The translations under genes were made by a program, and so were the position numbers. Of a stretch of 36,125 nt of DNA, positions 15,304 to 34,608 are shown piece after piece (the stretch's first letter is position 1; every line of letters starts with the position of its first letter). Source of the stretch: Alphaproteobacteria bacterium (GTDB lineage Bacteria; Pseudomonadota; Alphaproteobacteria; Rhizobiales; Xanthobacteraceae); NCBI GenBank assembly GCA_034668865.1, contig JAXDOO010000003.1, positions 1 to 36,125 of the forward strand. The letters run 5' to 3'. The notes below the pieces were generated by a model, which did not search any database, was not told where the DNA came from, and saw nothing but the letters and a program-made list of their open reading frames with translations.

Positions 15304-15377
15304 TGGGGAATAGTTCAACGGTAGAACATCGGACTCTGACTCCGAGAATCTAGGTTCGAATCCTAGTTCCCCAGCCA
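15304..15377 (+). tRNA. tRNA-Gln (anticodon CUG)
   Basis: Cloverleaf read by hand. Acceptor TGGGGAA/TTCCCCA, D stem GTTC/GAAC, anticodon stem TCGGA/TCCGA with loop CTCTGAC (CTG at 34-36), T arm CTAGG-TTCGAAT-CCTAG, discriminator G and encoded CCA. Confidence 0.92.
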
Positions 15378-21688: not shown

Positions 21689-22459
21689 GTGAAACTTGAT
21701 TCCATTGATCCAAGCCAGGTCGCTATTCTCCTCGACGTTGACGGCACGTTGCTCGATATCGCGCTGACGCCGCATGACGTGCGCGTGCCATCCACACTGC
21801 GCAGGACCTTGGAGAAGCTGCAGGAGCGCACCGATGGCGCGCTCGCGCTGGTGAGCGGGCGTTCGCTAAGCGATATCGATCTCATCTTCGCGCCGCTCAA
21901 GCTTTCGGCGGTGGGCGGGCATGGCGCCGAGATCCGGGTGTCGCCGAACAGCAAGGCCAACGGCACCAAGTTGCGATTTCTGGACAAGAAAACGCGCTCC
22001 CGCCTGCTCGAGGTCGCGGAGTTCGACGAAGGCATCATCATGGAGGACAAAGGTTATTCGGTCGCATTGCACTACCGTCTCGCACCGGACAAGAAACGCG
22101 CCATTGAGGACGCCGTCACTGCGATTTGCGGCGAGCTGCCGGAGGGCGCGGTGGAGATCCTGCCCGGCAAGGCGGTAATCGAAATCAAGAAAAGCGGCTT
22201 TAACAAAGGCACTGCCTTGCGCGACCTCATGGCGCATGCGCCCTTTGCCGGCCGCAGGCCGATATTTGTCGGTGACGACGTGACCGACGAGGCGGCTTTC
22301 GCAGTAGTGCCGGAATTCGACGGAATGGCAATCTCGGTCGGACGCATGGTGCCGGGCGTGGCGCAGCGTTTCGAAGCACCGAGCGACGTGCGGCGCTGGC
22401 TTGAGCACATCGCCAGGGACGGGGCAGGACGGCCCGAGGGCAGACAACCGGGAGGATAG
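21689..22459 (+). CDS. otsB: trehalose-6-phosphate phosphatase
   Basis: 256-aa HAD-family ORF with ILLDVDGTLL (DxDGT), LVSGRS and FVGDDVTDE. Directly followed by otsA. GTG start from the track. Confidence 0.85.
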   Translation: MKLDSIDPSQVAILLDVDGTLLDIALTPHDVRVPSTLRRTLEKLQERTDGALALVSGRSLSDIDLIFAPLKLSAVGGHGAEIRVSPNSKANGTKLRFLDKKTRSRLLEVAEFDEGIIMEDKGYSVALHYRLAPDKKRAIEDAVTAICGELPEGAVEILPGKAVIEIKKSGFNKGTALRDLMAHAPFAGRRPIFVGDDVTDEAAFAVVPEFDGMAISVGRMVPGVAQRFEAPSDVRRWLEHIARDGAGRPEGRQPGG

Positions 22460-22462
22460 TTA

Positions 22463-23887
22463 TTGGCCCGCCTCGTAGTGGTGTCCAACCGCGTCGCGGT
22501 TCCGACGCGCGACGGTAAGAGCCAGGCGGGAGGCCTCGCAGTCGCCCTCCGCTCAGTGCTGAAAAACAATTCCGGCCTTTGGTTCGGCTGGAGCGGCGGC
22601 ATCGCTGCGAGCGCCGCAGAAAAGCAGACCCGTACAGCGCAGCATGGCTACATCTCTTACGTGGTCACCGACCTCGTCCATGATGACTACCAGGAATATT
22701 ACAACGGTTTCGCCAACCGGATGCTGTGGCCGATCCTGCATTATCGCCTCGACCTTGCGGAATTCTCCCGCCGCGATCTGGGTGGTTACCTGCGGGTGAA
22801 CGTCCATTTCGCCGAAGAGTTGGAAAAAATTCTGCGACCGGACGACGTGGTTTGGGTGCACGACTATCATCTGATTCCCTTTGCGAAGACACTACGGGAG
22901 CGTGGCCATCGCAATAAGATCGGCTTCTTCCTGCATGTTCCCTTTCCGCCTCCTGAAATCCTCACCGCCCTGCCCAACCACGACCGTTTGATTCCGGACT
23001 TGATCCATTACGACCTGGTGGGCTTCCAGACCGCGAACGACGCCGCCAATTTGGCGCGCTACCTGAGCAAGGAATGCCTCATACCGCGCCGCGACGCCGA
23101 CACCTTCCAGGCTGGCGAGCGTGTCATGCGGATTGGGGTCTTCCCGATCGGCATCGAGACAGTGGAATTCAACCGGTTGGCGCAACGTTCGGTGGTCTCC
23201 CCATTCGTTACCCAGACAGTCGCAAGTCTCGCCGGCCGCGACATGATTATCGGCGTCGACCGGCTGGATTATTCCAAAGGCCTGCGGCTGCGGATGGATG
23301 CATTCGAGGACTTTCTCACCACCCACCCCGATTGGCGGGGAAAGGTGACCTATTTGCAGATCACACCGAAAAGCCGTTCCGCCATCCGGGAATATGAGGA
23401 CATGGAGCGGCAGATCAGCGAAGCAGCCGGACGCATCAACGGCGCTTTTGGCGAAGCCGCATGGACCCCGATCCGTTACGTCAACCGTGCGCATAGCCGC
23501 ACGGCGCTCGCGGGTCTTTACCGCTCGGCGCGGGCCGCGCTGGTCACGCCGCTGCGCGACGGCATGAATCTCGTGGCAAAGGAATATGTGGCGGCGCAGG
23601 ACGAAGAAAATCCGGGCGTTCTTATCCTGTCGCGCTTCGCGGGCGCTGCCTGCGAGCTTGACTCCGCCCTGGTCGTTAACCCGTACGACAGCGAGGGCGT
23701 CGCCGCCTCCATTGCGCGAGCGTTGTCGATGCCGCTCGAAGAGCGCCGCAGCAGACACGACAAAATGTTCCAGGTGTTGCTGGCCAACGACGTCAAATTT
23801 TGGGGCGAGCGCTTCATGACAACTCTGACGCGGCCGCACGCCCTGCCGACCTGGATCGTACGCTCAGGCACCTTCCTCAATGACTGA
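22463..23887 (+). CDS. otsA: alpha,alpha-trehalose-phosphate synthase (UDP-forming)
   Basis: 474-aa GT20 ORF with RLVVVSNRV, WVHDYHL, GFFLHVPFP, DRLDYSKG and RDGMNLVAKEY. TTG start with GGAGGA 6 nt upstream, 3 nt after the otsB stop. Confidence 0.9.
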   Translation: MARLVVVSNRVAVPTRDGKSQAGGLAVALRSVLKNNSGLWFGWSGGIAASAAEKQTRTAQHGYISYVVTDLVHDDYQEYYNGFANRMLWPILHYRLDLAEFSRRDLGGYLRVNVHFAEELEKILRPDDVVWVHDYHLIPFAKTLRERGHRNKIGFFLHVPFPPPEILTALPNHDRLIPDLIHYDLVGFQTANDAANLARYLSKECLIPRRDADTFQAGERVMRIGVFPIGIETVEFNRLAQRSVVSPFVTQTVASLAGRDMIIGVDRLDYSKGLRLRMDAFEDFLTTHPDWRGKVTYLQITPKSRSAIREYEDMERQISEAAGRINGAFGEAAWTPIRYVNRAHSRTALAGLYRSARAALVTPLRDGMNLVAKEYVAAQDEENPGVLILSRFAGAACELDSALVVNPYDSEGVAASIARALSMPLEERRSRHDKMFQVLLANDVKFWGERFMTTLTRPHALPTWIVRSGTFLND

Positions 23888-25705
23888 CGTGGACCCCGGG
23901 TCCCAGGCGGGCGTCTGCTCCGCCCGCTGCTCGGCCGGTTTCACCGCGGCGGTCAGGTTGAAGGCACTGTTGACCAGCGCGACATGCGAGAAGGCTTGCG
24001 GAAAATTCCCAACCAACCTCCCACTGCGAGGATCATATTCTTCGCTCAGCAGCCCAACGTCATTGCACAAGCCGAGCAGCCGCTCGAATAGCTTACGGGC
24101 ATCGTCATGGCGTCCCAACAGGATGTAAGCATCCACCAGCCAGAAGCTGCATGCGAGGAAGGCGCCCTCGCCCGGCGGCAAGCCGTCATCGGTGCTTTCG
24201 GTTGCATAGCGCAAGACGAAGCCGTCGACCGTGAGATGGCGTTCGATGGCTTCGACGGTGCCGCCGATGCGAGGATCTTGCGGCGGTAGGAAACCGACTT
24301 CGGCAAGCAGGAGCAGGCTGGCGTCAAGCTCCGTACCGTCATAGGCCTGCACGAAGCTGCCGAGCTCTGCGTTGTAGCCGCGTTGGCAGACCTCGGCATG
24401 AATTTGCGTGCGCAATTGGCGCCAGCGCTCCTGCGGTCCGGGCAAATTAAATTTTTCCGCGCTCTTGATGGCGCGATCGAAAGCAACCCAGGCCATGACC
24501 TTGGAATAGGTGAAATGCCGGCGCGGGCCGCGCACTTCCCAGATGCTTTCGTCCGGCTCATGCCATGCGTTCTCGAGCCTGCGCAGCATGGCAATCTGCA
24601 AATCCCAGCCTGACTCCAAGGCCGCCAGTCCGCCCAGCCTAGCTTGGTGGAAAGCGTCCATCACTTCGCCATAGACATCCAGTTGCAGCTGGCGATGCGC
24701 GTCATTGCCGATGCGGACAGGCGAGGAATTTTCGTAACCCGGCAACCAGGGGACCTCCCATTCGGTCAGTCTTCGCTCGCCCGCGATGCCATACATGATC
24801 TGAATCTGGTCGGGACTTCCCGCCACCGCGCGGGCAAGCCATGCGCGCCAGTCTTGCGCTTCCTGGTAATAGTCGGCGTTCATCAACGCCAGCAGCGTCA
24901 GAGTTGCGTCGCGCAGCCAGCAGAAGCGGTAGTCCCAATTCCGTTTCCCGCCGAGATGCTCCGGCAAGGACGTGGTCGGCGCCGCCACGATGCCGCCGGT
25001 CGGCGCGTAAGTGAGGGCCTTCAGTGTCACCAGCGAGCGCACCACCGACTCGGGGCAGGATCGCCCGCCGCGGCAGCGCGCTGACCATTCGGTCCAGAAT
25101 TTTTCCGTTATGTTCAAAGCCTGCTTCGGATCCACCGATTTGGGCGCCGGCAGATGAGAAGGCGCGTAGGTGAGCACAAAGGACACACTCTCCCCCGCGC
25201 TGACGGTGAAATCAGCGACGGTGGTGAGGTTCTCGCCATGCAGTTTCACCGATGAGCAGAGCAGGACCATGTCGGGGCCGGCAATGGCGCGGATGCCGCC
25301 GTCCGGGAGCCGCGTTACCCAAGGCACGATCGCGCCGTAGCCGAACCGCAGAATCAACTCGGTGTGCATCGCGACCTTGCCGCGTTCGCCCGTAACGATG
25401 CGTACGACGTCGGACCTGCCATCGCGCAGCGGCATGAAATCGGTGAGCTTGACCGCGCCCTCTTTAGTTTCAAACGTCGTTTCAAGGATGAGCGTGTCGC
25501 CGCGGTATCGCCTGCTGATGCGCGGAGACGGCTCGCGCGGGCTGATCAGCCAACGCCCGTGCTCGCGCGTACCGAGCAGCGCCGCGAAACAGGCATCGGA
25601 GTCGAAGCGCGGCCAGCACAACCAATCCATGGACCCGTTGCGCGACACCAGCACCGCGGTTTCGCAGTCGCCAATTAGGGCATAATCTTCGATGCGTTCG
25701 GCCAT
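23864..25705 (-). CDS. glycoside hydrolase family 15 (glucoamylase/trehalase-like)
   Basis: 613-aa ORF. MAERIEDYALIGDCETAVLVSRNGSMDWLCWPRFDSDACFAALLG is the typical bacterial GH15 N-terminus. The 3' end overlaps the otsA 3' end by 24 nt (convergent). Confidence 0.85.
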   Translation of the reverse strand: MAERIEDYALIGDCETAVLVSRNGSMDWLCWPRFDSDACFAALLGTREHGRWLISPREPSPRISRRYRGDTLILETTFETKEGAVKLTDFMPLRDGRSDVVRIVTGERGKVAMHTELILRFGYGAIVPWVTRLPDGGIRAIAGPDMVLLCSSVKLHGENLTTVADFTVSAGESVSFVLTYAPSHLPAPKSVDPKQALNITEKFWTEWSARCRGGRSCPESVVRSLVTLKALTYAPTGGIVAAPTTSLPEHLGGKRNWDYRFCWLRDATLTLLALMNADYYQEAQDWRAWLARAVAGSPDQIQIMYGIAGERRLTEWEVPWLPGYENSSPVRIGNDAHRQLQLDVYGEVMDAFHQARLGGLAALESGWDLQIAMLRRLENAWHEPDESIWEVRGPRRHFTYSKVMAWVAFDRAIKSAEKFNLPGPQERWRQLRTQIHAEVCQRGYNAELGSFVQAYDGTELDASLLLLAEVGFLPPQDPRIGGTVEAIERHLTVDGFVLRYATESTDDGLPPGEGAFLACSFWLVDAYILLGRHDDARKLFERLLGLCNDVGLLSEEYDPRSGRLVGNFPQAFSHVALVNSAFNLTAAVKPAEQRAEQTPAWDPGSTSVIEEGA

Positions 25706-25706
25706 G

Positions 25707-26756
25707 TCAGGCTGCGATGTCGATGATTACTTTGATATCGCCGCGGCGGTGTTCGAGCGCGTCCTGCCAACGCTCGAGCGGCACCCGCCGGGTGATCAGC
25801 CGGCGCAGCCACGCCTTGTCGGCCTTGGCGAGCGCCTGTGCGGCTGCTTCATAATGCACGCGATTGCCGTTGACGCTGCCGAAGACGACCTGATTGTTCA
25901 GGACCATGGTGCGGTTCCACGCGCCCACGTCGAATTCGGCCGCATGCCCCGCCGGCGAAACCCCGGCAAGGCAAACGATACCACTTGGCGCAACACGCTG
26001 GAGCGCTCCGGTGATCACTGGAACGGCGCCCGTGCACTCGATCAGGATATCCGGCTGCAAATCGACCGCGCCGATATCGCTGGTGTGATATTCTGCGCCA
26101 AGGCCGCGCGCGAGCTCGGGCTTGGGCCCGGTGGCATTGCGGTCGAGAAGATGGACCTCCAGCCCTCGTTGCACCCCGATCAGCGCGGCGAGTAGCCCAA
26201 TGGGACCCGCACCGGTGACGAGAACAATTTTCGGTGGCCATGAACGTGACCGCCGGCCGACGGCTTCGATGTGATCCCATGCCTTGGCAACCACGCTGGT
26301 CGGCTCGATCAACACACCCAGAATCTCCAGGCCGGGATCGACCTTGATGGCGAATTCGGGCTCGATGCGGAACAGCTCGGCGCCGAAGCCGTTGCGCGCT
26401 TTTATGCCGTGCTCGGTATATTCGCCGTTGAGGCACATGTCCCATTCTCCCGCCGCACAGGCCGGGCATGGGACGGGGTCAGGATGGCGCACAAAGCCGA
26501 CGATCAAATCTCCGGGAGCAAAGCCGCTGTCCCGCGGCGCCTGCTCCACCCGCCCTAGGGATTCGTGGCCGAGGATAAGCCGCTCCTGCCCCACGGGTGC
26601 AGCTCCATATTTTCCCGCCATGATCTCGCGGTCGGTGCCGCATACGCCTAGGACGATGGCGCGAGCCAGGACCGAGCCTTCCGACAGCGGCGGCTCCGGC
26701 ACCTCGTCAAGTCGCAGCGAATTCGCCACGCCTGGCAGGACTGTCAGCGCACGCAT
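25707..26756 (-). CDS. Zn-dependent medium-chain dehydrogenase, glucose 1-dehydrogenase-like
   Basis: 349-aa ORF. GVCGTDREI and the GroES-like/Rossmann layout (VLVTGAGPIGLL) resemble archaeal-type glucose dehydrogenases. The stop lies 1 nt before the GH15 start, so an operon is likely. Confidence 0.75.
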   Translation of the reverse strand: MRALTVLPGVANSLRLDEVPEPPLSEGSVLARAIVLGVCGTDREIMAGKYGAAPVGQERLILGHESLGRVEQAPRDSGFAPGDLIVGFVRHPDPVPCPACAAGEWDMCLNGEYTEHGIKARNGFGAELFRIEPEFAIKVDPGLEILGVLIEPTSVVAKAWDHIEAVGRRSRSWPPKIVLVTGAGPIGLLAALIGVQRGLEVHLLDRNATGPKPELARGLGAEYHTSDIGAVDLQPDILIECTGAVPVITGALQRVAPSGIVCLAGVSPAGHAAEFDVGAWNRTMVLNNQVVFGSVNGNRVHYEAAAQALAKADKAWLRRLITRRVPLERWQDALEHRRGDIKVIIDIAA

Positions 26757-26859
26757 GCCTGTTGCTCCCGGAAACCAAAGCTTTCGGGCATGGTTGTTTG
26801 GTGTCCTTTAAAGAGCATGACCTCGTTGGGCTGCAGTCGCGAAAGGCAGGAGATCACGC

Positions 26860-27231
26860 ATGGAAGCCATTGGAAAAAAACGATGGGCAATACCCGAAGG
26901 TTACATCCCTTCTGAGAGCTGTTCGAACGAACGCGCACTGATTTCGCATGAAACGGCCTGCATCCTGAATGCCGGCGACGCCGAGGCGCATATTACGCTG
27001 ACGGTCTACTTTACCAATCGCGAGCCGGTGACTTACCAAGTCGCCGTGCCGGCGCGCCGCACCCTTCATCTCCGCTTCAACGACTTGAAGGATCCCGAAG
27101 CCGTTCCCCTGGACACCGATTTTTCTTCGGTATTTGAATCTGATGTGCCCATCACGGTTCAGCACACGCGGCTTGATTCGCGGCGCGCGGAAATTTCGCT
27201 GCTCAGCACGATCGCCTATGCTCAGGATTAA
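26860..27231 (+). CDS. sensory rhodopsin transducer (ASRT) family protein
   Basis: 123 aa. KRWAIPEGYIP...ISHETACILNAGDAEAHITLTVYF...VPARRTLHLRFNDL...DTDFSSVFESDVPITVQHTRLDSRRAEISLLSTIAY matches my recollection of the ASRT (PF07100) consensus nearly along the full length. AGGAGA lies 7 nt upstream. Confidence 0.7.
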   Translation: MEAIGKKRWAIPEGYIPSESCSNERALISHETACILNAGDAEAHITLTVYFTNREPVTYQVAVPARRTLHLRFNDLKDPEAVPLDTDFSSVFESDVPITVQHTRLDSRRAEISLLSTIAYAQD

Positions 27232-27336
27232 ATCCCTTCAACTCTAAGGGGACGCCGGACGGCTTTCCGTCGGGGAGGGAGGGGTATGAAGGCCGTCCGG
27301 CGTATTTGACGCGACCGAGGGGGAAGTCGCGTCTTA
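27225..27336 (-). ncRNA. candidate GsrN-like small RNA (about 110 nt, three hairpins, C-rich loops)
   Basis: Predicted minus-strand RNA: hairpin 1 GACGCGAC-UUCCCCCUCG-GUCGCGUC (27333-27308). Hairpin 2 ACGCCGGACGGC-[CUUCAUACCCCUCCCUCCCCGACGGAAA]-GCCGUCCGGCGU (27303-27252). Hairpin 3 CCCUU-AGAGUUG-AAGGG (27250-27234) followed by AUUUAAU. An EcfG-like motif lies directly upstream and there is no ORF. Confidence 0.4.
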
Positions 27337-27342
27337 AAGGCA

Positions 27343-27368
27343 AACACGCGGAGCCTTGCGAATGTTCC
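27343..27368 (-). promoter_or_regulatory. EcfG-type promoter candidate, GGAAC-N17-TGTT
   Basis: Minus-strand GGAAC (27368-27364), 17-nt spacer, TGTT (27346-27343). It lies 28 nt downstream of the DUF2188 stop and about 10 nt before hairpin 1 of the sRNA candidate. Confidence 0.35.
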
Positions 27369-27395
27369 GTGGTTGCCGCCGGGCGTTTGGAACAA

Positions 27396-27632
27396 CTACG
27401 CGCGAGGAAGATAAGGCCCCTGCCCGTATGTCCATTCGGGCCGGAAATGGCCGTTCTCGCCCATCACGCAGACTTCAGCCTTCCGGTCACCCTGATCGCC
27501 CAGCTTCTGGGCTGCATCGATGGCGAAAAGCATGGCCTCGGACTGGGTGCGATAAGGCCCATATTCCTCATCGTCGAACTTGATCAGCCAGTTGCCGTCG
27601 TGCTGAACGACAAAATAGCGGGCCTGGGCCAT
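27396..27632 (-). CDS. DUF2188-like small protein
   Basis: I prefer ATG 27632 (MAQARYFVVQHDGNWLIKFDDEEYGPYRTQSEAMLFAIDAAQKLG) with GGAGA 6 nt upstream. The track start at 27710 overlaps otsA2. The family assignment is from memory of the motif pattern. Confidence 0.55.
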   Translation of the reverse strand: MAQARYFVVQHDGNWLIKFDDEEYGPYRTQSEAMLFAIDAAQKLGDQGDRKAEVCVMGENGHFRPEWTYGQGPYLPRA

Positions 27633-27690
27633 TCGTAATCTCCTGCCGCAACAGGTGAGATAAGCAGCTTGCCCAAGTTTCGCGACGAAA

Positions 27691-29187
27691 TTAATGCCGG
27701 GAATCGCCATTCACTAGATTTTGACCGGCCGAGGCGGCGGTGCGATTGCCAATTTCGCGGCGGCGCAGCTGGAACGGCAGCAAGGTGGCGCTCTCTGGAA
27801 CGACCGCCGGCTCTGGGTAAGGCATGCGCAAGGCGGTGACGAAATCCGAGAACCAGGCCTGCAAAGGCGCGGCGATCAGCGCCTTCATCATAGCGTCCCA
27901 GCGTTCGCGCCGCTCGTCTTGCGGCATGCTGAAGGCCTCGGCTATGGCGCTGGAGAGCCCTTCGATATCGTGCGGGTTGACCAGGATTGCCGCATCCAGC
28001 TGCTGGGCGGCGCCCGCGAACTTGGAGAGCACCAGCACTCCCGGATTGGAGGGATCCTGTGCTGCAACATATTCTTTGGCGACGAGATTCATGCCGTCGC
28101 GCAACGATGTTACCAAACCGACCTGCGCTATGCGGTAGAAGCAGGCCAGCCTGCCCTGGGAAAAGCCCTTTGTAAGGTACCGAATGGGCGCCCAATCAAT
28201 CTCCCCATGGCGGCCGTTGATTTCGGTCACTTGGCCTGCGAGCTGCAATTGAAGTTTTTGATAGGCGTCGACGTGAACGCGCGAGGGCACGGCGATCTGC
28301 AATAGCGCAACCGTGCGCTTAAGCGCCGGATGATGTTGCAGCAGCTGGTCGAAAGCTTCCAGGCGGTTAGTCAGCCCTTTCGAATAGTCGACGCGGTCCA
28401 CGCCGATCGCCAGCCGCGCACCTTGCAAACTGGCGCGCAGGCGGGCGGCTTCCGGGCGCCCCGCCGCTTTGACGGCGCGCGCCGCGAAACTGACCGCGTC
28501 AATCCCGATCGGGAAGGTGCCGATGCGAACGGTGCGCTTGCCGACCTTATAGACATCGCCGTCGCTCTTTAGGCCCAGTTCGTTCTCGAGATACTTAGCC
28601 AAATTGACGTGGTCTTCGTCGGTTTGCACCCCGATCAGATCGTAGGCGAGCATCGCATGGATCAATTCGCGATGATGCGGCACGCTGGAGAACACGCCGC
28701 GCGTCGGGAACGGCGTGTGCAGAAAGAAGCCGATCGGTTGGGTGATGCCGAGCTTGCGCATATCCGCGCCGAGCGCGAGGTAGTGATAATCGTGAATCCA
28801 GAAGGCCGCATCCGGTTTAGCAAAGCGGATCAGTACCCGCGCCATTAGAGTGTTGATTTCCCGATAGGCGGCGTAATCCTCACCCGACGTGCGGATCAGA
28901 TCCGGGCGCGAATGCAATGCCGGCCAAAGTGCGGAATTGGAGAATCCATCGTAAAAGGCGCGATACTGCTTTTTAGGCAAATCGACGGTGGCGATGCTGC
29001 CGGCGCCATAAGATTTTATCGTTGCGAAGGGCTCCTTCGCTGGCACTTCCAGCGGGCACTGGCTGGCGCCAACCCAAATGGCCCCGCAAGTCTGCACGGC
29101 AGGAAGTAACGCAGCCGCCAATCCTCCTTCGATCGGTTCGTCCGCCACTGGGCAGGCGACGCGATTCGAAACCACGACCAATGTCAT
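27691..29187 (-). CDS. otsA: second trehalose-phosphate synthase paralog (GT20)
   Basis: 498-aa ORF with MTLVVVSNRV, WIHDYHY, GFFLHTPFP, DRVDYSKG and RDGMNLVAKEY. Clearly diverged from the otsA at 22463-23887. Confidence 0.88.
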   Translation of the reverse strand: MTLVVVSNRVACPVADEPIEGGLAAALLPAVQTCGAIWVGASQCPLEVPAKEPFATIKSYGAGSIATVDLPKKQYRAFYDGFSNSALWPALHSRPDLIRTSGEDYAAYREINTLMARVLIRFAKPDAAFWIHDYHYLALGADMRKLGITQPIGFFLHTPFPTRGVFSSVPHHRELIHAMLAYDLIGVQTDEDHVNLAKYLENELGLKSDGDVYKVGKRTVRIGTFPIGIDAVSFAARAVKAAGRPEAARLRASLQGARLAIGVDRVDYSKGLTNRLEAFDQLLQHHPALKRTVALLQIAVPSRVHVDAYQKLQLQLAGQVTEINGRHGEIDWAPIRYLTKGFSQGRLACFYRIAQVGLVTSLRDGMNLVAKEYVAAQDPSNPGVLVLSKFAGAAQQLDAAILVNPHDIEGLSSAIAEAFSMPQDERRERWDAMMKALIAAPLQAWFSDFVTALRMPYPEPAVVPESATLLPFQLRRREIGNRTAASAGQNLVNGDSRH

Positions 29188-29217: not shown

Positions 29218-29242
29218 AACGATCCGTTCATCTAATGGTTCC
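29218..29242 (-). promoter_or_regulatory. EcfG-type promoter, perfect GGAAC-N16-CGTT
   Basis: Minus-strand GGAAC (29242-29238), 16-nt spacer, CGTT (29221-29218), 31 nt upstream of the otsA2 ATG at 29187. Confidence 0.65.
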
Positions 29243-29818: not shown

Positions 29819-29843
29819 AACGTCCCGGTTAATGGTTGGTTCC
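29819..29843 (-). promoter_or_regulatory. EcfG-type promoter, perfect GGAAC-N16-CGTT
   Basis: Minus-strand GGAAC (29843-29839), 16-nt spacer, CGTT (29822-29819), 27 nt upstream of the DUF992 ATG at 29792. Confidence 0.65.
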
Positions 29844-30600: not shown

Positions 30601-30625
30601 AACGTGCGCAGTAGCAGCAGGTTCC
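30601..30625 (-). promoter_or_regulatory. EcfG-type promoter, perfect GGAAC-N16-CGTT
   Basis: Minus-strand GGAAC (30625-30621), 16-nt spacer, CGTT (30604-30601). It lies 20 nt after the kinase stop and 78 nt upstream of ATG 30523. Confidence 0.6.
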
Positions 30626-30644: not shown

Positions 30645-32054
30645 TTAGCGACCGACCGACAATTGAACGACCGGGATGACAATCCGGCAGCGTACCCCGG
30701 CGGGGGTGAAGTCCATGGTTACCTCGGCGTCCAGGGAGCGCGTAAGATTTTGCTCAATCACCATGCTGCCGAAGCCGCGCTGCTTGGGCGGCTTGACCTT
30801 GGGTCCGTGCTCCTCGTCCCAGCAGATCTCAACTCCGTGACCTTCAGTTGCAGGCATCCGCTTCCAGCAGATGGAAACATGTCCCTTCGGCACGGAAAGC
30901 GCTCCGTATTTTGCTGCATTGGTAGCCAATTCGTGCAGTGCCAGCCCTAGGCTTTGCGCCGCTTCCGGCTTCAGCACGACGGTCGGGCCATTGAGCGAAA
31001 CCTGGGTGCTGACCCTATCAAGGTAATGCCCAAGTTGGGATCGCACCAACTCATACAGCGAAACACCGTACCAGCTTTCCTGCACCAGAAGGTCGTGCGA
31101 GGTCGCCAGCGCCTGCAAGCGCGCACCGAATTGCATGAGAAAGCCGTCGATGGAGCCGACGTGCCGTGCCGTCTGCCGCGCCATAGCCTGGATCACGGCG
31201 AGCAGATTCTTCGAGCGATGCGTCAATTCGCGCATCAATAGGCGCAGATGCGCTTCCCCCTCCTTGCGCTCAGTGATGTCAACCGCTGCGCAGCTCAGGC
31301 CGACGATGGCGCCCATGATGTCTCGCAGGGGCTCAATGTGCAGATCATGCCAGCGTTCGCCGGAAGCTGTCTGGATGCAGACCTCGCTATCCTGCGGGCT
31401 GCCGGTTTCCAGCGCGGCACGCTTCAAGGCGATGATCGCCGAGCGGCTGGCCGCCGGGAGTACATCCTCGTCGGTATGACCGATGATCTCATCGATCTTA
31501 CGCTCGAATATGGGATTGCTGATGGAGGTGTAACGCAAGTCGCGATCTTGCGTATAAACAGTGACATTCGATCCGCGTAGCGCGGTCTCATAGCGCTGCA
31601 AGGTGCCAGCCAGTTGCTCGCTCAGATCGCGGTGTTCGCTCTCCAGCGAGCGTACACGGGAAATATCAATGGCGGTGGTGGTGATGCCGACGACTTTGCG
31701 GTCGGGCCCAAGGATTGGATGCACATGCAAGGCGAAGAGCTTGCGGCCTTCCGGCAAGGTATAAGATACCTCGCAATCCGCCGGCACGCCGCTCTGCAAC
31801 ACCCGTTGCTTGACGGCGACCACGGCCTCGCGTTCGCGCGATGGCAAGAGCTCCTCATCGGTGCGGCCGGTGAGGCCATCGCCGCCAGGGGGGCCGTAAA
31901 CCCAGGTGTAGCGAAGATCCTCATCCTGGCGGAAGACATAGATGTTCGCTTCCGCGAGGGCAGCTTCCAGCTGCTCAGGCGGAAATTGGCCTGCTGGCGC
32001 GCTGTCTTTGCGGGAGGATGCTGTCGTCAATTGTTTCTCATATGGCCGCACCAA
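30645..32054 (-). CDS. cytoplasmic PAS-PAS HWE/HisKA_2-type sensor histidine kinase (GSR kinase candidate)
   Basis: 469 aa with no TM segment and two PAS-like repeats (YVFRQDEDLRYTWV, VYTQDRDLRYTSI). H-box LTHRSKNLLAVIQAMARQT and C-terminal HELATNAAKYGA. Adjacent to phyR. The start (TTG 32054 or GTG 32051) is uncertain. Confidence 0.85.
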   Translation of the reverse strand: MVRPYEKQLTTASSRKDSAPAGQFPPEQLEAALAEANIYVFRQDEDLRYTWVYGPPGGDGLTGRTDEELLPSREREAVVAVKQRVLQSGVPADCEVSYTLPEGRKLFALHVHPILGPDRKVVGITTTAIDISRVRSLESEHRDLSEQLAGTLQRYETALRGSNVTVYTQDRDLRYTSISNPIFERKIDEIIGHTDEDVLPAASRSAIIALKRAALETGSPQDSEVCIQTASGERWHDLHIEPLRDIMGAIVGLSCAAVDITERKEGEAHLRLLMRELTHRSKNLLAVIQAMARQTARHVGSIDGFLMQFGARLQALATSHDLLVQESWYGVSLYELVRSQLGHYLDRVSTQVSLNGPTVVLKPEAAQSLGLALHELATNAAKYGALSVPKGHVSICWKRMPATEGHGVEICWDEEHGPKVKPPKQRGFGSMVIEQNLTRSLDAEVTMDFTPAGVRCRIVIPVVQLSVGR

Positions 32055-32097
32055 GCATTCTCACAGAACAATAACCAATTATCTGATGTGGTGTCGC

Positions 32098-32123
32098 AAC
32101 TGCGGCGACACCACTGCGGTTCC
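32098..32123 (-). promoter_or_regulatory. EcfG-type promoter candidate, GGAAC-N17-AGTT
   Basis: Minus-strand GGAAC (32123-32119), 17-nt spacer, AGTT (32101-32098), about 45 nt upstream of the kinase start. The spacer is part of a perfect 10-bp hairpin (32088-32097 / 32105-32114). Confidence 0.35.
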
Positions 32124-32480
32124 GTACGATAGAACCAAGATGATCAAGCGCGTGGTTGCGGCGGAACCTTGATTGCTGCCCGCGCATTGAAATTGAGGAT
32201 CGGCCGCATCCCCTCCCCTTCGCGCGGCCTTCAATTAGGCGTAGCTGGCCATCTGCCGGCTGCGCCTCTTTGCGTCGAACGCTTGCGACTGCCCCCCATT
32301 TCGCTGCCGTGCCGCAGGGAAAGCAATTTTCCTCATGGCAGCAAAAAGCAAGTCTCGGAGCGATGACATCGCTGCCGTCGAAGAGCGGATGCAAGATTTG
32401 GAGTCGCGACTGCGCCGCGTTAATGCCAAGGCAAAGGCAAATGTAGACGGCGGTGCGACAGCGCGGCGGAGGTAGCGGCT

Positions 32481-33284
32481 CTAAGCCGTGGCGCGGTGCT
32501 CGCGGCGCTTGGCCTTGCGCTCAAAGAACAGCGCCTGGCTGAGCACGGCCGAAACGGTCGCCGGCTGGAACGGCTTGGCGATTAGGAAGGCCGGCTCCGG
32601 CCGCTGCCCGGTGAGGAATCTTTCCGGATAGGCGGTGATGAAGATCACCGGCACTTCAAAAAGCCGCAACAATTCGTTGACCGCGTCGAGGCCGGAACTG
32701 CCGTCGGCCAGTTGGATGTCGGCAAGGATCAGACCGGGGCGCTTGGCCTTGGCCAGCGCGATCGCTTCCGAATGGGTGCGCGCGACACCGAGCACGCGAT
32801 GGCCCAGGCTTTCGACGAGGCCCTCCAAATCCATCGCGATAAAAGTCTCGTCTTCGATGATCAACACGTCAGTGGCGATCTCGGCTGCCAGCTCACGGCC
32901 CGATTCCTCCACTAACCGCCGCAGGGTGGGCACATCGACGTCCAGGACCTTCGCTGCGTCATCTTCCGACAACCCCTCCAAGGCGACAAGCAGGAAAGCT
33001 TGGCGGGGCTTCGGGGTGATATGCGAAAGCCGCTGCTCCACCGGCATATCCCGGCTCGCCGGCTCGGTGGCGTCGTTGACGGGTACGGAATTCCAGATCT
33101 TGGTGAAAAGTCGATAGAGCGCGACTCGGGTGGAGGCCGCCTTTTCCAGCACGCTGGGGTCCTCGATCAGGGCCTCCAGGGTCGTGGCCACATAGGCATC
33201 GCCAGAGCTCTGGCTCCCGGTCAAGGCGCGGGCATAGCGGCGGAGATAGGGCAAATGTTGCGCTACGGCTTGAGACGTCGACAC
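32481..33284 (-). CDS. phyR: PhyR anti-anti-sigma response regulator (sigma-like domain + receiver)
   Basis: VSTSQAVAQHLPYLRRYARALTGSQSSGD is the canonical PhyR N-terminus. C-terminal receiver: VLIIEDE...LILADIQLADGSSG...KPF. I prefer GTG 33284 with GGGAGGG 6 nt upstream over the track TTG at 33341. Confidence 0.88.
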   Translation of the reverse strand: MSTSQAVAQHLPYLRRYARALTGSQSSGDAYVATTLEALIEDPSVLEKAASTRVALYRLFTKIWNSVPVNDATEPASRDMPVEQRLSHITPKPRQAFLLVALEGLSEDDAAKVLDVDVPTLRRLVEESGRELAAEIATDVLIIEDETFIAMDLEGLVESLGHRVLGVARTHSEAIALAKAKRPGLILADIQLADGSSGLDAVNELLRLFEVPVIFITAYPERFLTGQRPEPAFLIAKPFQPATVSAVLSQALFFERKAKRREHRATA

Positions 33285-33366
33285 GGAAAACCCTCCCAGT
33301 TCGATTCGGAAAACCCCCGGCGACCCCCTGAGGGCATACAATAATTCAAATCCGCTCTAAGGCAAT

Positions 33367-33391
33367 GGAACCGCTCATTGCCAAAAAAGTT
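33367..33391 (+). promoter_or_regulatory. EcfG-type promoter of nepR-ecfG, GGAAC-N16-AGTT
   Basis: GGAAC at 33367-33371, 16-nt spacer, AGTT at 33388-33391, about 98 nt upstream of the nepR ATG. Confidence 0.55.
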
Positions 33392-33393
33392 CC
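33369..33393 (-). promoter_or_regulatory. EcfG-type promoter of phyR, GGAAC-N16-GGTT
   Basis: Minus-strand GGAAC (33393-33389), 16-nt spacer, GGTT (33372-33369). It overlaps the nepR promoter face to face. Confidence 0.55.
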
Positions 33394-33488
33394 CCTAACT
33401 ATGGAACGAAACCTGCAAGTGAGACTTTTACTCCGATGACGCAAGGGGGGCCGGCCGCTTTTAAGCAAAAAGGGCCGGTGAGGGACGC

Positions 33489-33701
33489 ATGAAAGACGCC
33501 AAATCAACCGGAACCCGTTCGCAGATGGAAACTGGAACTAGCCCAGGCAAGCCCGACGCGAAATTGGGTCGCGATATTCAAGCAAAGATCGGCCAACAGC
33601 TCCGCGCCCTGTATGACGAAGTGCTCAATCAGGGAGTACCGGACCGCTTTGCGGATCTCTTGAATCGCCTAGATAAGCCGGATGACAAGGAGTCGCGGTA
33701 A
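33489..33701 (+). CDS. nepR: NepR anti-sigma factor
   Basis: 70 aa. IGQQLRALYDEVLNQGVPDRFADLLNRL is the conserved NepR core. The stop overlaps the ecfG start (TAATG). Confidence 0.8.
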   Translation: MKDAKSTGTRSQMETGTSPGKPDAKLGRDIQAKIGQQLRALYDEVLNQGVPDRFADLLNRLDKPDDKESR

Positions 33702-34252
33702 TGGCTCTGGACGCGTCCGTCCGAGATGCTGTCCTGGCAGCAGTCCCCAGCCTGCGCGCCTTCGCCATTTCATTGTGCGGGAACGTCGACCGCGCGGACG
33801 ACTTGGTGCAGGAAACGCTGTTGCGCGCCTTGGCCAATATCAATTCGTTCCAGCCCGGCACGAACATGTCCGCTTGGCTGTTCACCATTCTGCGCAATCA
33901 TTTTCGCTCGGAATATCGCAAGCGCCGGCGTGAGGTCGAGGACGGCGACGGCAGCTATGCCGAAACGCTGAAATCGCATCCGGAGCAGTATGGCCGGGTT
34001 GAATTTGAAGAATTCCGCACGGCGTTGGCCAAGCTGCCGCCGGATCAGCGAGAAGCGCTGGTGCTGGTGGGGGCCTCAGGATTTTCCTACGAGGAAGCGG
34101 CAACGATCTGCGAGTGCGCTGTCGGCACCATCAAGAGCCGCGTCAATCGGGCCCGTACCCGCCTGTCAGAGTTGATGTCGGTCGAAAGTGTCGATGATTT
34201 CGGCCCCGACCGCACCACCCGCGCTATTCTCGCCCGCACCGAAAGAGCCTAA
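33701..34252 (+). CDS. ecfG: ECF sigma factor EcfG (ECF15 group)
   Basis: 183 aa with region 2 (DDLVQETLLRA, WLFTILRNHF) and region 4 (LPPDQREALVLVGASGFSYEEAA). Sits in the nepR-ecfG / phyR arrangement. Confidence 0.9.
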   Translation: MALDASVRDAVLAAVPSLRAFAISLCGNVDRADDLVQETLLRALANINSFQPGTNMSAWLFTILRNHFRSEYRKRRREVEDGDGSYAETLKSHPEQYGRVEFEEFRTALAKLPPDQREALVLVGASGFSYEEAATICECAVGTIKSRVNRARTRLSELMSVESVDDFGPDRTTRAILARTERA

Positions 34253-34538: not shown

Positions 34539-34564
34539 AACTCTGGGCGTTGGTGAATTGTTCC
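34539..34564 (-). promoter_or_regulatory. EcfG-type promoter candidate, GGAAC-N17-AGTT
   Basis: Minus-strand GGAAC (34564-34560), 17-nt spacer, AGTT (34542-34539), 37 nt upstream of ATG 34502. Confidence 0.5.
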
Positions 34565-34583: not shown

Positions 34584-34608
34584 GGAACCACAGATTGTCT
34601 ATGACGTT
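34584..34608 (+). promoter_or_regulatory. EcfG-type promoter, perfect GGAAC-N16-CGTT
   Basis: GGAAC at 34584-34588, 16-nt spacer, CGTT at 34605-34608, 30 nt upstream of the ligD ATG at 34638. Confidence 0.65.

Follow-up and report, generated by a model that had tools for sequence, protein, structure and literature searches.

The PhyR-NepR-EcfG general stress response of the Alphaproteobacteria has been well mapped at the level of transcription, and to our knowledge nearly all experimental evidence on its post-transcriptional arm comes from GsrN of Caulobacter. In Caulobacter crescentus GsrN is a sigT/EcfG-dependent general-stress sRNA of about 100 nt, which acts through an exposed C-rich loop that contains CCCCCCGAC (PMC5869019). 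It is processed to a stable 5' isoform, is stabilised by Hfq and activates katG by means of its C-tract. Homologs of GsrN were defined by BLASTn (Tien et al. 2018, PMC5869019), and GsrN-like genes elsewhere in the Alphaproteobacteria have been proposed from their position near ecfG-nepR-phyR (PMC5869019), among them genes of R. palustris and B. diazoefficiens drawn in Fig. 9 of that paper. The cuckoo/CcsR/ar14 RNAs are described as having hairpins of 24-50 nt, loops of 9-27 nt, linkers of at most 10 nt and helices of at least 6 bp (PMC4615179, PMC8034643). Among them the CcsR sRNAs, whose loops are C-rich, are co-transcribed with the DUF1127 protein CcaF1, which binds them and affects their maturation (PMC8034643).

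The element considered here lies in the 164-bp spacer between the converging ASRT and DUF2188 genes of a 36-kb window, by which we mean the whole stretch of DNA analysed (36,125 nt). We confirm that this spacer element is real. All the sequence details of the original prediction proved correct, coordinates included, and the general stress response locus does lie about 5 kb away as it had proposed, phyR being 5.1 kb from the RNA; the linkage between the RNA and phyR recurs in loci L124, L118 and L138. The statement that the spacer has no ORF holds in a biological sense, but there are mechanical ORFs (46 and 55 aa) that overlap it. The features of the locus are as follows.

26860-27231, plus strand: ASRT gene (PF07100 match, 1.8e-50), convergent with the RNA
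27234-27250, minus strand: hairpin 3, CCCUU-AGAGUUG-AAGGG, specific to the window and unconserved
27241-27251, minus strand: pyrimidine-rich 3' tail CCCCUUAGAGU
27252-27303, minus strand: hairpin 2, 52 nt, with a 12-bp GC-rich stem ACGCCGGACGGC / GCCGUCCGGCGU
within hairpin 2, minus strand: loop 2, 28 nt, UUCAUACCCCUCCCUCCCCGACGGAAAG
27269-27284, minus strand: candidate seed of loop 2, CCCCUCCCUCCCCGAC (family consensus CCCUCCCCCGAC)
27288-27286, minus strand: CAU just upstream of the loop-2 seed
27304-27307, minus strand: short A/U-rich linker AAAU, 4 nt, between the hairpins
27308-27333, minus strand: hairpin 1, 26 nt, with an 8-9 bp stem GACGCGAC / GUCGCGUC
27325-27316, minus strand: loop 1, 10 nt, UUCCCCCUCG
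27343-27368, minus strand: EcfG-type promoter, with -35 GGAAC at 27368-27364, a 17-nt spacer and -10 TGTT at 27346-27343
27396-27632, minus strand: DUF2188 gene, 78 aa (PF09954 match), the same-strand upstream neighbour of the RNA
27691-29187, minus strand: otsA2, with its own canonical GGAAC-N16-CGTT at 29242-29218

We consider it likely that the minus strand from 27368 to 27241 is the gene for a structured small RNA of about 90-97 nt which is EcfG-dependent, acts in trans and pairs with its targets through the loop-2 motif CCCUCCCCCGAC, and that this RNA probably represents a new family of stress-response regulatory RNAs in soil Hyphomicrobiales. Comparison of the copies shows a promoter motif kept at fixed spacing, a conserved and covarying structure, selection on the minus strand, loop conservation, terminator tails in more distant members and the linkage to DUF2188; transcription itself, EcfG dependence, the 5' and 3' ends, the base-pairing mode and the targets we infer.

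Folding of the minus strand gives -48.2 kcal/mol (z = -6.0), with 0 of 200 shuffles as good, and the loop-2 seed is predicted to be unpaired. Three hairpins had been proposed, with C-rich loops in the first two; hairpins 1 and 2 are indeed strong, conserved and C-rich in their loops, but hairpin 3 lacks conservation and probably does not belong to the element. The AAAU linker might serve as a site for Hfq. Hairpin 2 probably doubles as the terminator hairpin of the RNA. The 10 nt that follow it hold 3.7 U on the sense side versus 1.8 on the antisense side, and U-rich tails (5-9 U in 10 nt) are found after it in L006, L104, L087, L127, L128, L130 and L134, with 8-9 U in L127, L128 and L130. The tail in the window, CCCCUUAGAG, is weak (2 U in 10 nt), and a simple terminator scan called no terminator at the window's hairpin 2. 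As the U tail is weak (CCCCUU) in the window's clade, the 3' end of the RNA is uncertain; it would be expected within the pyrimidine-rich tail at 27241-27251 or after hairpin 3, and the ASRT stop codon is about 10-20 nt from the predicted end.

More than 35 homologous copies were recovered from MAGs and metagenomes. Four of the homologs are genome loci anchored on ASRT, 29 come from a metagenome pattern scan, and of eight DUF2188 proteins that were looked up, six led to nine more loci (L127-L130, L132-L134, L137 and L138). The carriers belong to several soil Hyphomicrobiales genera (Xanthobacteraceae MAGs, Pseudorhodoplanes and Bauldia). A repeat or mobile element was rejected as an explanation, the covariance model giving a single copy per locus, and with this model no extra copies were found in the window or in fetched loci totalling about 0.9 Mb. 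In alignment A5, 98.6% of alignment cells are paired in hairpins 1 and 2, and compensatory changes occur in 9 of the 20 pairs: five of the eight in hairpin 1, and four pairs that covary in hairpin 2. None of 500 shuffles reached the observed pairing or covariation, slid controls were paired in just 22-47% of cells, and RNAalifold returned the same two hairpins from an independent MAFFT alignment. The most conserved unpaired block is CCCCCGAC in loop 2, which is nearly invariant. Because the pattern used for the metagenome scan fixed CCCCTC, TTCAYA and CCCGACGGAA, loop conservation in the 29 homologs found by it is partly ascertainment, but CCCCCGAC is kept also in the homologs reached through DUF2188 rather than through a DNA pattern. 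Loop 1 is C-rich in most homologs, the C-run being lost in the divergent L138 and L128.

The minus-strand GGAAC-N17-TGTT (27368-27343) of the original prediction is present, with the hairpins beginning 9 nt later and transcription predicted to start near 27337-27334. Relatives that keep the hairpins without the promoter motif had been named as evidence that would speak against the prediction; instead the relatives keep GGAAC-N16/17-NGTT at fixed spacing. Of the distinct homologs, 27 extend far enough upstream to be judged, and every one has the motif 33-35 nt from hairpin 1, 11 of them with CGTT as the -10; the sequence between -35 and -10 varies freely. Divergent copies carry the canonical GGAAC-N16-CGTT. 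Among all copies the exceptions are the rearranged L126, and L132 with CATT at the -10. In the window as a whole there are eight occurrences of GGAAC-N17-GTT (0.64 expected) and four of GGAAC-N18-GTT (0.8 expected), and general-stress-type genes stand behind most copies of the GGAAC/GTT motif. The window's own combination of TGTT and a 17-nt spacer, as opposed to the canonical CGTT and 16, counts against the EcfG reading. The phyR and nepR promoters of the same window have AGTT and GGTT as their -10, so that the TGTT of the RNA is not disqualifying.

In comparison with GsrN, the name GsrN-like can be kept for the RNA as a functional analogy, but homology is undetectable, the fold differs and Rfam gives no match. 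Both RNAs are about 100 nt, both have an EcfG-type promoter at the level of the motif (GGAAC-N16-CGTT for gsrN, GGAAC-N17-TGTT in the window) and both expose a C-tract, GCCCCCCGAC in GsrN and CCCUCCCCCGAC in the DUF2188-linked family; CCCC(CC)GAC, which C. crescentus GsrN carries in its exposed loop, is the sole sequence that they share. The locus also resembles the GsrN-like genes proposed by position, being near ecfG-nepR-phyR and having a near-consensus EcfG site and a C-rich loop. A nhmmer search of the C. crescentus gsrN locus (taken from supplementary file 12, the gBlock table, of PMC5869019) with the A5 family profile gave no match at E <= 1000 with filters off (--max). Whereas in GsrN the 5' end closes a 5' multiloop that holds the C-tract, with a separate plain terminator after it, the RNA described here has two simple hairpins, independent of each other, of which the probable terminator hairpin carries the main C-tract in its loop, and fixed linkage to DUF2188 is not a feature of GsrN. 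The katG gene is not in the window.

With the cuckoo/CcsR/ar14 RNAs (PMC4615179, PMC8034643) the element shares its hairpin modules, the drive by a stress sigma factor (predicted to be EcfG for the window RNA) and a place directly adjoining a small gene of unknown function, possibly within one transcript. The loops of cuckoo RNAs carry the C-rich anti-Shine-Dalgarno motif CCUCCUCCC, but its exact sequence is absent from both window loops, which carry CCCCUCCCUCCCC and UUCCCCCUC. The cuckoo limits accommodate hairpin 1 (26 nt, 10-nt loop) and the linker of 4 nt, and hairpin 2 (52 nt, 28-nt loop) is just beyond them unless weak inner pairs are counted. The sigma factors are RpoHI/HII there and EcfG (predicted) here, the partner gene is DUF1127 there and DUF2188 here, and the host lineage of the window is outside the reported cuckoo families. 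The Rfam ar14 model had no match to 27100-27500 even at E <= 10, and ar7, whose gathering score is 60, reached just 10.7 bits (E = 9.6). Rfam 15 as a whole returned only chance-level matches to this interval at E <= 10 (6C, ErsA, MH_s10 and ar7), and of the entire window only a tRNA passes the gathering thresholds. The best sub-threshold matches, to 6C (RF01066, 23.5 bits) and ErsA (RF01719, 16.6 bits), are far under the respective cut-offs of 47 and 50 bits (E = 0.5-0.8). The 6C RNA of Actinobacteria also has two hairpins with C-rich loops, and ErsA of Pseudomonas is driven by an ECF-type stress sigma factor, but the phyla are unrelated, and the resemblance is a convergence of design, not membership.

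If the function lay on the plus strand, with the hairpins acting as the terminator or 3' UTR of ASRT or as a bidirectional terminator and the minus-strand features arising as by-products, this would suit the observations that the plus strand folds too (z = -3.4) and that in most loci 20 nt separate the end of ASRT from hairpin 2. It is very unlikely in view of the strand on which pairing has been maintained. Read on the minus strand, the aligned stems contain 517 Watson-Crick pairs, 35 wobbles and 8 mismatches; read on the plus strand they contain 517, 3 and 40. The 35 one-sided changes are thus G-U wobbles on the minus strand and mismatches on the plus strand, which indicates that the structure was selected in a minus-strand transcript. 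The same substitutions, together with the lack of a U-rich tail on the plus side, speak against the earlier suggestion of a dual use as ASRT terminator, as does the presence of the RNA in L127, L128, L134, L138, L102, L090, L098 and L103 with no ASRT nearby; in these comparisons ASRT is a neighbour of the RNA and not a required partner. A tiny plus-strand ORF (ATG at 27287, MKAVRRI) behind the strong Shine-Dalgarno-like GGGAGGGAGGGG is extremely improbable as the functional unit. The conservation of GGGGGAGGGAGGGTATG would agree with it, but this sequence is conserved as the complement of loop 2, and substitutions track RNA pairing and not codons. The window copy ends after 7 codons, and the ORF was rejected because among homologs neither its length (7 aa to >37 aa) nor its frame is kept.

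It might also be argued that the hairpins are merely the 3' UTR or terminator of the otsA2-DUF2188 operon, a cis element for stability or termination, and that the GGAAC is incidental. This operon is probably EcfG-driven, and read-through from it would also cover the RNA. The RNA constantly follows DUF2188, hairpin 2 with its pyrimidine tail resembles a terminator, and in a simple terminator scan no terminator-like site was found between DUF2188 and the RNA promoter, the DUF2188 stop codon being followed by the hairpins without one. The reading is nevertheless improbable, since wherever the upstream DNA is intact the promoter motif stands at a fixed spacing (with CATT in one copy) while its spacer drifts, and since what terminators conserve is structure and not, from genus to genus, a stretch of 12-20 nt in the loop. 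The operon and sRNA explanations can each hold in part, as sRNAs of the type-I 3'-UTR kind, transcribed from a promoter of their own, are known. That the RNA is real and acts mainly via protein, being bound, matured or sequestered by DUF2188 or sponging some other RNA-binding protein, is in our view unlikely. CcaF1 (DUF1127) with the CcsR sRNAs offers a precedent (PMC8034643), and the DUF2188-RNA pair is found in at least four gene neighbourhoods (ASRT, proS, DUF992/phyR and otsB). The stem core of hairpin 2, CCGG.C/G.CCGG, is nearly invariant while other pairs covary, which exceeds structural need and may point to protein binding instead of or besides base pairing. Against it, the exposed C-rich loops are typical of a base-pairing seed, two DUF2188 homologs (L131 and L135/L136) have no RNA, and comparison of DUF2188 with NCBIfam and PDB sequences gave no functional lead, the one relative of solved structure, 5jn6 (E = 0.03), being itself uncharacterised.

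Constant same-strand linkage to DUF2188 is the strongest contextual feature of the RNA and was absent from the original prediction. In every recovered locus the RNA is directly downstream of DUF2188, even where ASRT and otsA are lacking. Literature searches on DUF2188, and on sRNAs that depend on EcfG in the Bradyrhizobium lineage, turned up no account of the RNA. A doubtful but conceivable extension, drawn by analogy with CcaF1/CcsR, is that the general stress response includes a conserved protein-RNA module made up of DUF2188 and the RNA, in which DUF2188 would bind the hairpin-2 stem and govern how the sRNA matures, how stable it is or which targets it selects.

As an EcfG-dependent, trans-acting base-pairing sRNA, the RNA would be made under stress, when PhyR frees the sigma factor EcfG from NepR and the EcfG-RNA polymerase would initiate at GGAAC-N17-TGTT, just past the DUF2188 stop codon, with additional transcript probably coming from read-through of the otsA2-DUF2188 operon. 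The RNA would fold into its two hairpins, the second having both the large C-rich loop and the role of terminator hairpin, and would expose CAUACCCCUCCCUCCCCGAC in loop 2 and, in most members, also UUCCCCCUC in loop 1. These tracts may pair with G-rich stretches of mRNAs encoded elsewhere, in Shine-Dalgarno/start regions or in G-tracts of leaders, and the pairing would alter translation or stability of the targets, so that the general stress response would have a post-transcriptional arm. Neither the 36-kb window nor the syntenic neighbour genes yielded a convincing target. When the loops of each locus were set against the start regions of ASRT, DUF2188, otsA, GDH, GH15, ecfG, phyR and the HWE kinase, duplex energies were those of the background; the DUF992 start region was scored in a single locus, and that of nepR gave a duplex z of about -1.5 to -2 in three loci only. 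Within the HWE kinase gene, GAGGGGGAAG (31262-31253, minus strand) is a perfect 10-nt complement of loop 1, and was rejected as a target because in L118, the sole locus that allows a comparison, these codons are G-rich too, as coding constraint can explain. A further candidate, GGGGAGGGGATG in the phyR-kinase spacer, is not conserved.

The RNA is, in one sense, one more candidate base-pairing sRNA of familiar design. What is new is a second, predicted sRNA family, unrelated in sequence to GsrN, which shares its promoter type, closely resembles it in the C-rich seed and is backed by covariation, strand-specific wobbles and promoter conservation over several Hyphomicrobiales genera. The covariance model provides a means of finding members in cultivable strains. 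The strict linkage to DUF2188 provides a testable lead on a protein family without known function, and if the module proposed above is true, RNA binding would be the first function assigned to the widespread DUF2188 family. For the general stress response of the Alphaproteobacteria, the sequence comparisons suggest that an EcfG-driven C-rich sRNA is a recurrent, and perhaps convergent, component.

The spacer between the convergent ASRT and DUF2188 genes carries, on its minus strand, GGAAC-N17-TGTT followed by hairpins with C-rich loops, exactly as the original prediction described, and the core idea of a conserved, structured minus-strand RNA gene with an EcfG-type promoter was borne out. We regard such a gene, with its conserved promoter, as very likely to be real. 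The evidence fits best with an EcfG-dependent sRNA of ~90-97 nt whose C-rich loops would recognise G-rich stretches of mRNAs from other parts of the genome by base pairing, and we infer that it probably acts in trans in this way.

Features of the RNA locus and its general stress response (GSR) neighbourhood in the window
21689-22459, otsB, trehalose cluster
22463-23887, otsA, trehalose cluster
23864-25705, GH15 trehalase-like gene, trehalose cluster
25707-26756, glucose dehydrogenase gene, trehalose cluster
26860-27231, plus strand, ASRT gene (PF07100 match, 1.8e-50)
27232-27395, spacer between convergent ASRT and DUF2188, 164 bp
27303-27252, minus strand, hairpin 2, 12-bp stem, loop UUCAUACCCCUCCCUCCCCGACGGAAAG
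27333-27308, minus strand, hairpin 1, loop UUCCCCCUCG
27368-27364 and 27346-27343, minus strand, putative RNA promoter (-35 GGAAC, 17 nt, -10 TGTT); hairpins start 9 nt later
27396-27632, minus strand, DUF2188 gene, 78 aa (PF09954 match)
27691-29187, minus strand, otsA2, second otsA of the trehalose cluster, precedes DUF2188; EcfG-type promoter
29218-29242, minus strand, EcfG-type motif before otsA2, canonical GGAAC-N16-CGTT (29242-29218)
29819-29843, minus strand, EcfG-type motif before DUF992
30601-30625, minus strand, EcfG-type motif before a 128-aa ORF
30645-32054, minus strand, HWE kinase, core GSR gene
32098-32123, minus strand, EcfG-type motif before HWE kinase, GGAAC-N17-AGTT, within the 32055-32480 spacer
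32481-33341, minus strand, phyR, core GSR gene
33367-33393, both strands, EcfG-type motifs before divergent phyR and nepR, overlapping promoters, -10 AGTT and GGTT
33489-33701, plus strand, nepR, core GSR gene
33701-34252, plus strand, ecfG, core GSR gene
34539-34564, minus strand, EcfG-type motif before a 64-aa membrane protein
34584-34608, plus strand, EcfG-type motif before a LigD-like gene

The core GSR genes lie 3-7 kb from the spacer. GGAAC-N17-GTT occurs eight times in the window against 0.64 expected, and GGAAC-N18-GTT four times against 0.80; most EcfG-type copies precede typical GSR genes, and from 21 to 35 kb the window resembles a single GSR island. A trehalose cluster, with ASRT also among its genes, sits inside this neighbourhood (21689-29187). 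The -10 elements of phyR and nepR indicate that the first -10 base is free in this organism, in which the N17 spacer is also used elsewhere, and the TGTT with N17 of the RNA is a plausible EcfG site.

Homologs were gathered in three ways. Scanning genomes with the ASRT protein yielded 80 loci, largely from Xanthobacteraceae and Hyphomicrobiales MAGs, and just three of them (L001, L002, L006) have the homologous spacer; these share the order ASRT> <DUF2188 <otsA and, with the window, formed the four-sequence covariance model R1. With this model, neither the 80 loci nor the rest of the window showed an additional copy. A metagenome scan with a pattern fixed on the loop sequence only, stems left free, gave 46 loci, and R1 scores 29 of these at 65-110 bits. 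The contigs of eight DUF2188 homologs (64-74% identity) removed the ascertainment bias on the loops: R1 places the RNA directly downstream of six (32-82 bits), carriers including a Bauldia MAG (L127) and Pseudorhodoplanes contigs (L128-L130), and did not find it on L131 and L135/L136. GGAAC-N16/17-NGTT precedes the RNA in all 27 distinct homologs with enough upstream sequence (CGTT in 11, TGTT in 10, GGTT in six), with 33-35 nt from the start of GGAAC to hairpin 1, while the 16-17 nt between -35 and -10 vary freely. Such a pattern, with both elements held at a constant distance while the DNA between them drifts, is what a promoter in use would leave. Four of the six DUF2188-anchored copies have the canonical GGAAC-N16-CGTT, L134 has N17-GGTT and L132 has CATT.

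The hairpins themselves are under selection. Against dinucleotide shuffles the minus strand folds with z = -6.0 and the plus strand with z = -3.4. When 28 distinct sequences were aligned to R1, standard pairs filled 98.6% of cells and changes on both sides affected nine of 20 pairs; none of 500 shuffles matched the observed percentage paired or covariation score, and pairing in slid controls reached only 22-47% of cells. The same two hairpins, with nine compensated pairs, came out when RNAalifold was applied to a separately built MAFFT alignment of 14 diverse members. The third hairpin originally proposed, weak in the window after hairpin 2, is not conserved. Changes on one side of a pair settle the strand. 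Read on the minus strand, the columns give 517 Watson-Crick, 35 wobble (at nine different pairs) and eight unpaired cells; the plus-strand reading of identical columns gives 517, three and 40. RNA tolerates G-U but not its complement C·A, so the structure under selection is that of the minus-strand transcript. The hairpin-2 stem has a nearly invariant core (CCGG.C / G.CCGG) next to pairs that covary, and structure alone is insufficient to explain this.

The same wobble data weigh against a dual use of the hairpins as the ASRT terminator, as does the gene neighbourhood. In every locus that includes upstream sequence, the rearranged L126 apart, DUF2188 is the gene immediately upstream of the RNA and on its strand. 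Most loci have a convergent ASRT, and the other neighbours vary: proS lies downstream in Bauldia and Pseudorhodoplanes, the RNA adjoins DUF992, phyR, nepR and ecfG in L138, and otsB and GH15 in L137. ASRT is thus a frequent neighbour, not a partner. In L126 a GC-rich repetitive stretch of GCAGGTGC repeats (1677-1740), without GGAAC, replaces the DNA upstream of hairpin 1; this copy sits close to the end of its contig, so the change reflects either a rearrangement or an assembly chimera. No terminator was found in the window between the DUF2188 stop codon and the RNA promoter, and read-through from the EcfG-type otsA2-DUF2188 operon would also yield the RNA, as a 3' UTR. The 10 nt after hairpin 2 hold a mean of 3.7 U on the sense side against 1.8 on the antisense, and the divergent copies have obvious terminator tails (GCUUUUUCUUUGC and GCUUUUCUUUUUA); the clade of the window has just CCCCUU as its tail, which leaves the 3' end there uncertain. 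In L127 (3395-3680) and L128 (3408-3720) another hairpin, with flanking A-runs and T-runs (AGAGCAGGGCC..GGCCCTGCTC), comes after the sRNA terminator, and then a conserved-looking leader of ~250-300 nt before proS.

Among unpaired positions, conservation is strongest at CCCCCGAC of loop 2, which follows a C/U-rich run. Copies outside the pattern selection (L127, L128, L130, L134, L137, L138) retain this block, the lone exception being L132 with GGC instead of GAC. Loop 1 is UUCCCCCUC in most members, the C-run being lost in L138 and partly in L128. Because CAU sits 1-2 nt upstream of its C-run, loop 2 is the exact complement of a strong Shine-Dalgarno sequence and the following AUG. Read on the plus strand (27271-27310), this complement, GGGGAGGGAGGGG, resembles a very strong Shine-Dalgarno sequence and immediately precedes an ATG at 27287. 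The ORF that begins there, 7 aa in the window and 7 to >37 aa in relatives, is not coding. A mimic of a ribosome-binding site, complementary in full to the sRNA, would nevertheless be part of the ASRT 3' UTR.

No convincing conserved target was found in the window or the syntenic neighbour genes. Within the HWE kinase gene, GAGGGGGAAG (31253-31262, minus strand) complements loop 1 perfectly over 10 nt (duplex energy -21.8 kcal/mol); a random 10-mer would have ~0.07 such matches in 72 kb. Locus L118 is also G-rich at these codons (KEGEGHL), and the site may represent either a feedback target or no more than Gly/Glu codons. The 426-nt spacer between phyR and the HWE kinase gene (32055-32480), without a convincing ORF, contains GGGGAGGGGATG (~32218, minus strand), which complements loop 2 and is not conserved in L124 and L118. 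The nepR leader (GGGCCGGUGAGGGACGCAUG at ~33440-33490, plus strand, in the window; GCGGGGGCGAGCG in L118 and L124) has the best neighbour-gene duplex score for both loops (z ~ -1.5 to -2); with only three loci involved, this hints no more than weakly that the RNA could feed back on the anti-sigma factor.

At gathering thresholds, Rfam 15 has no match for the RNA; the sole family passing in the window is a tRNA (15304-15374, plus strand, 71 bits). At E <= 10 the RNA region resembles 6C (23.5 bits), ErsA (16.6 bits) and ar7 (10.7 bits) at chance level only; each is a hairpin RNA whose loops are C-rich, and each score is far below the cut-off. The original prediction's account of GsrN is accurate: this sigT-dependent RNA of ~100 nt pairs with the katG leader through an exposed C-rich 5' loop, and its homologs are usually encoded near the GSR locus; outside the Caulobacteraceae, 'GsrN-like' genes have been put forward solely on position and promoter (PMC5869019). 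Literal kinship was not upheld. The C. crescentus gsrN locus, taken from the supplementary gBlock table of PMC5869019, has GGAAC-N16-CGTT and an exposed GCCCCCCGACUUGAG, and the profile of the present family, with all filters off, had no match in it. GsrN folds as a 5' multiloop closed by its 5' end with a separate terminator, whereas the present RNA has two plain hairpins with the candidate seed inside the probable terminator hairpin. The cuckoo/CcsR RNAs, stress sigma factor-driven hairpins with CCUCCUCCC loops, adjoin and are co-transcribed with the gene of the small DUF1127 protein CcaF1, which binds them (PMC8034643, PMC4615179). The design and the layout of a small protein gene plus a C-rich sRNA are strikingly alike, but motif, Rfam model, sigma factor, partner protein and host lineage differ.

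The only sequence common to GsrN and the present RNA, CCCC(CC)GAC, is of interest as the functional seed of the former and the most conserved loop block of the latter, although a 7-9-mer common to two C-rich 100-mers is not evidence of homology. The RNA would be a functional analogue of GsrN rather than a demonstrated member of its family; conserved and structured on the minus strand, it probably represents a new family of sRNAs whose functional kind is already known.
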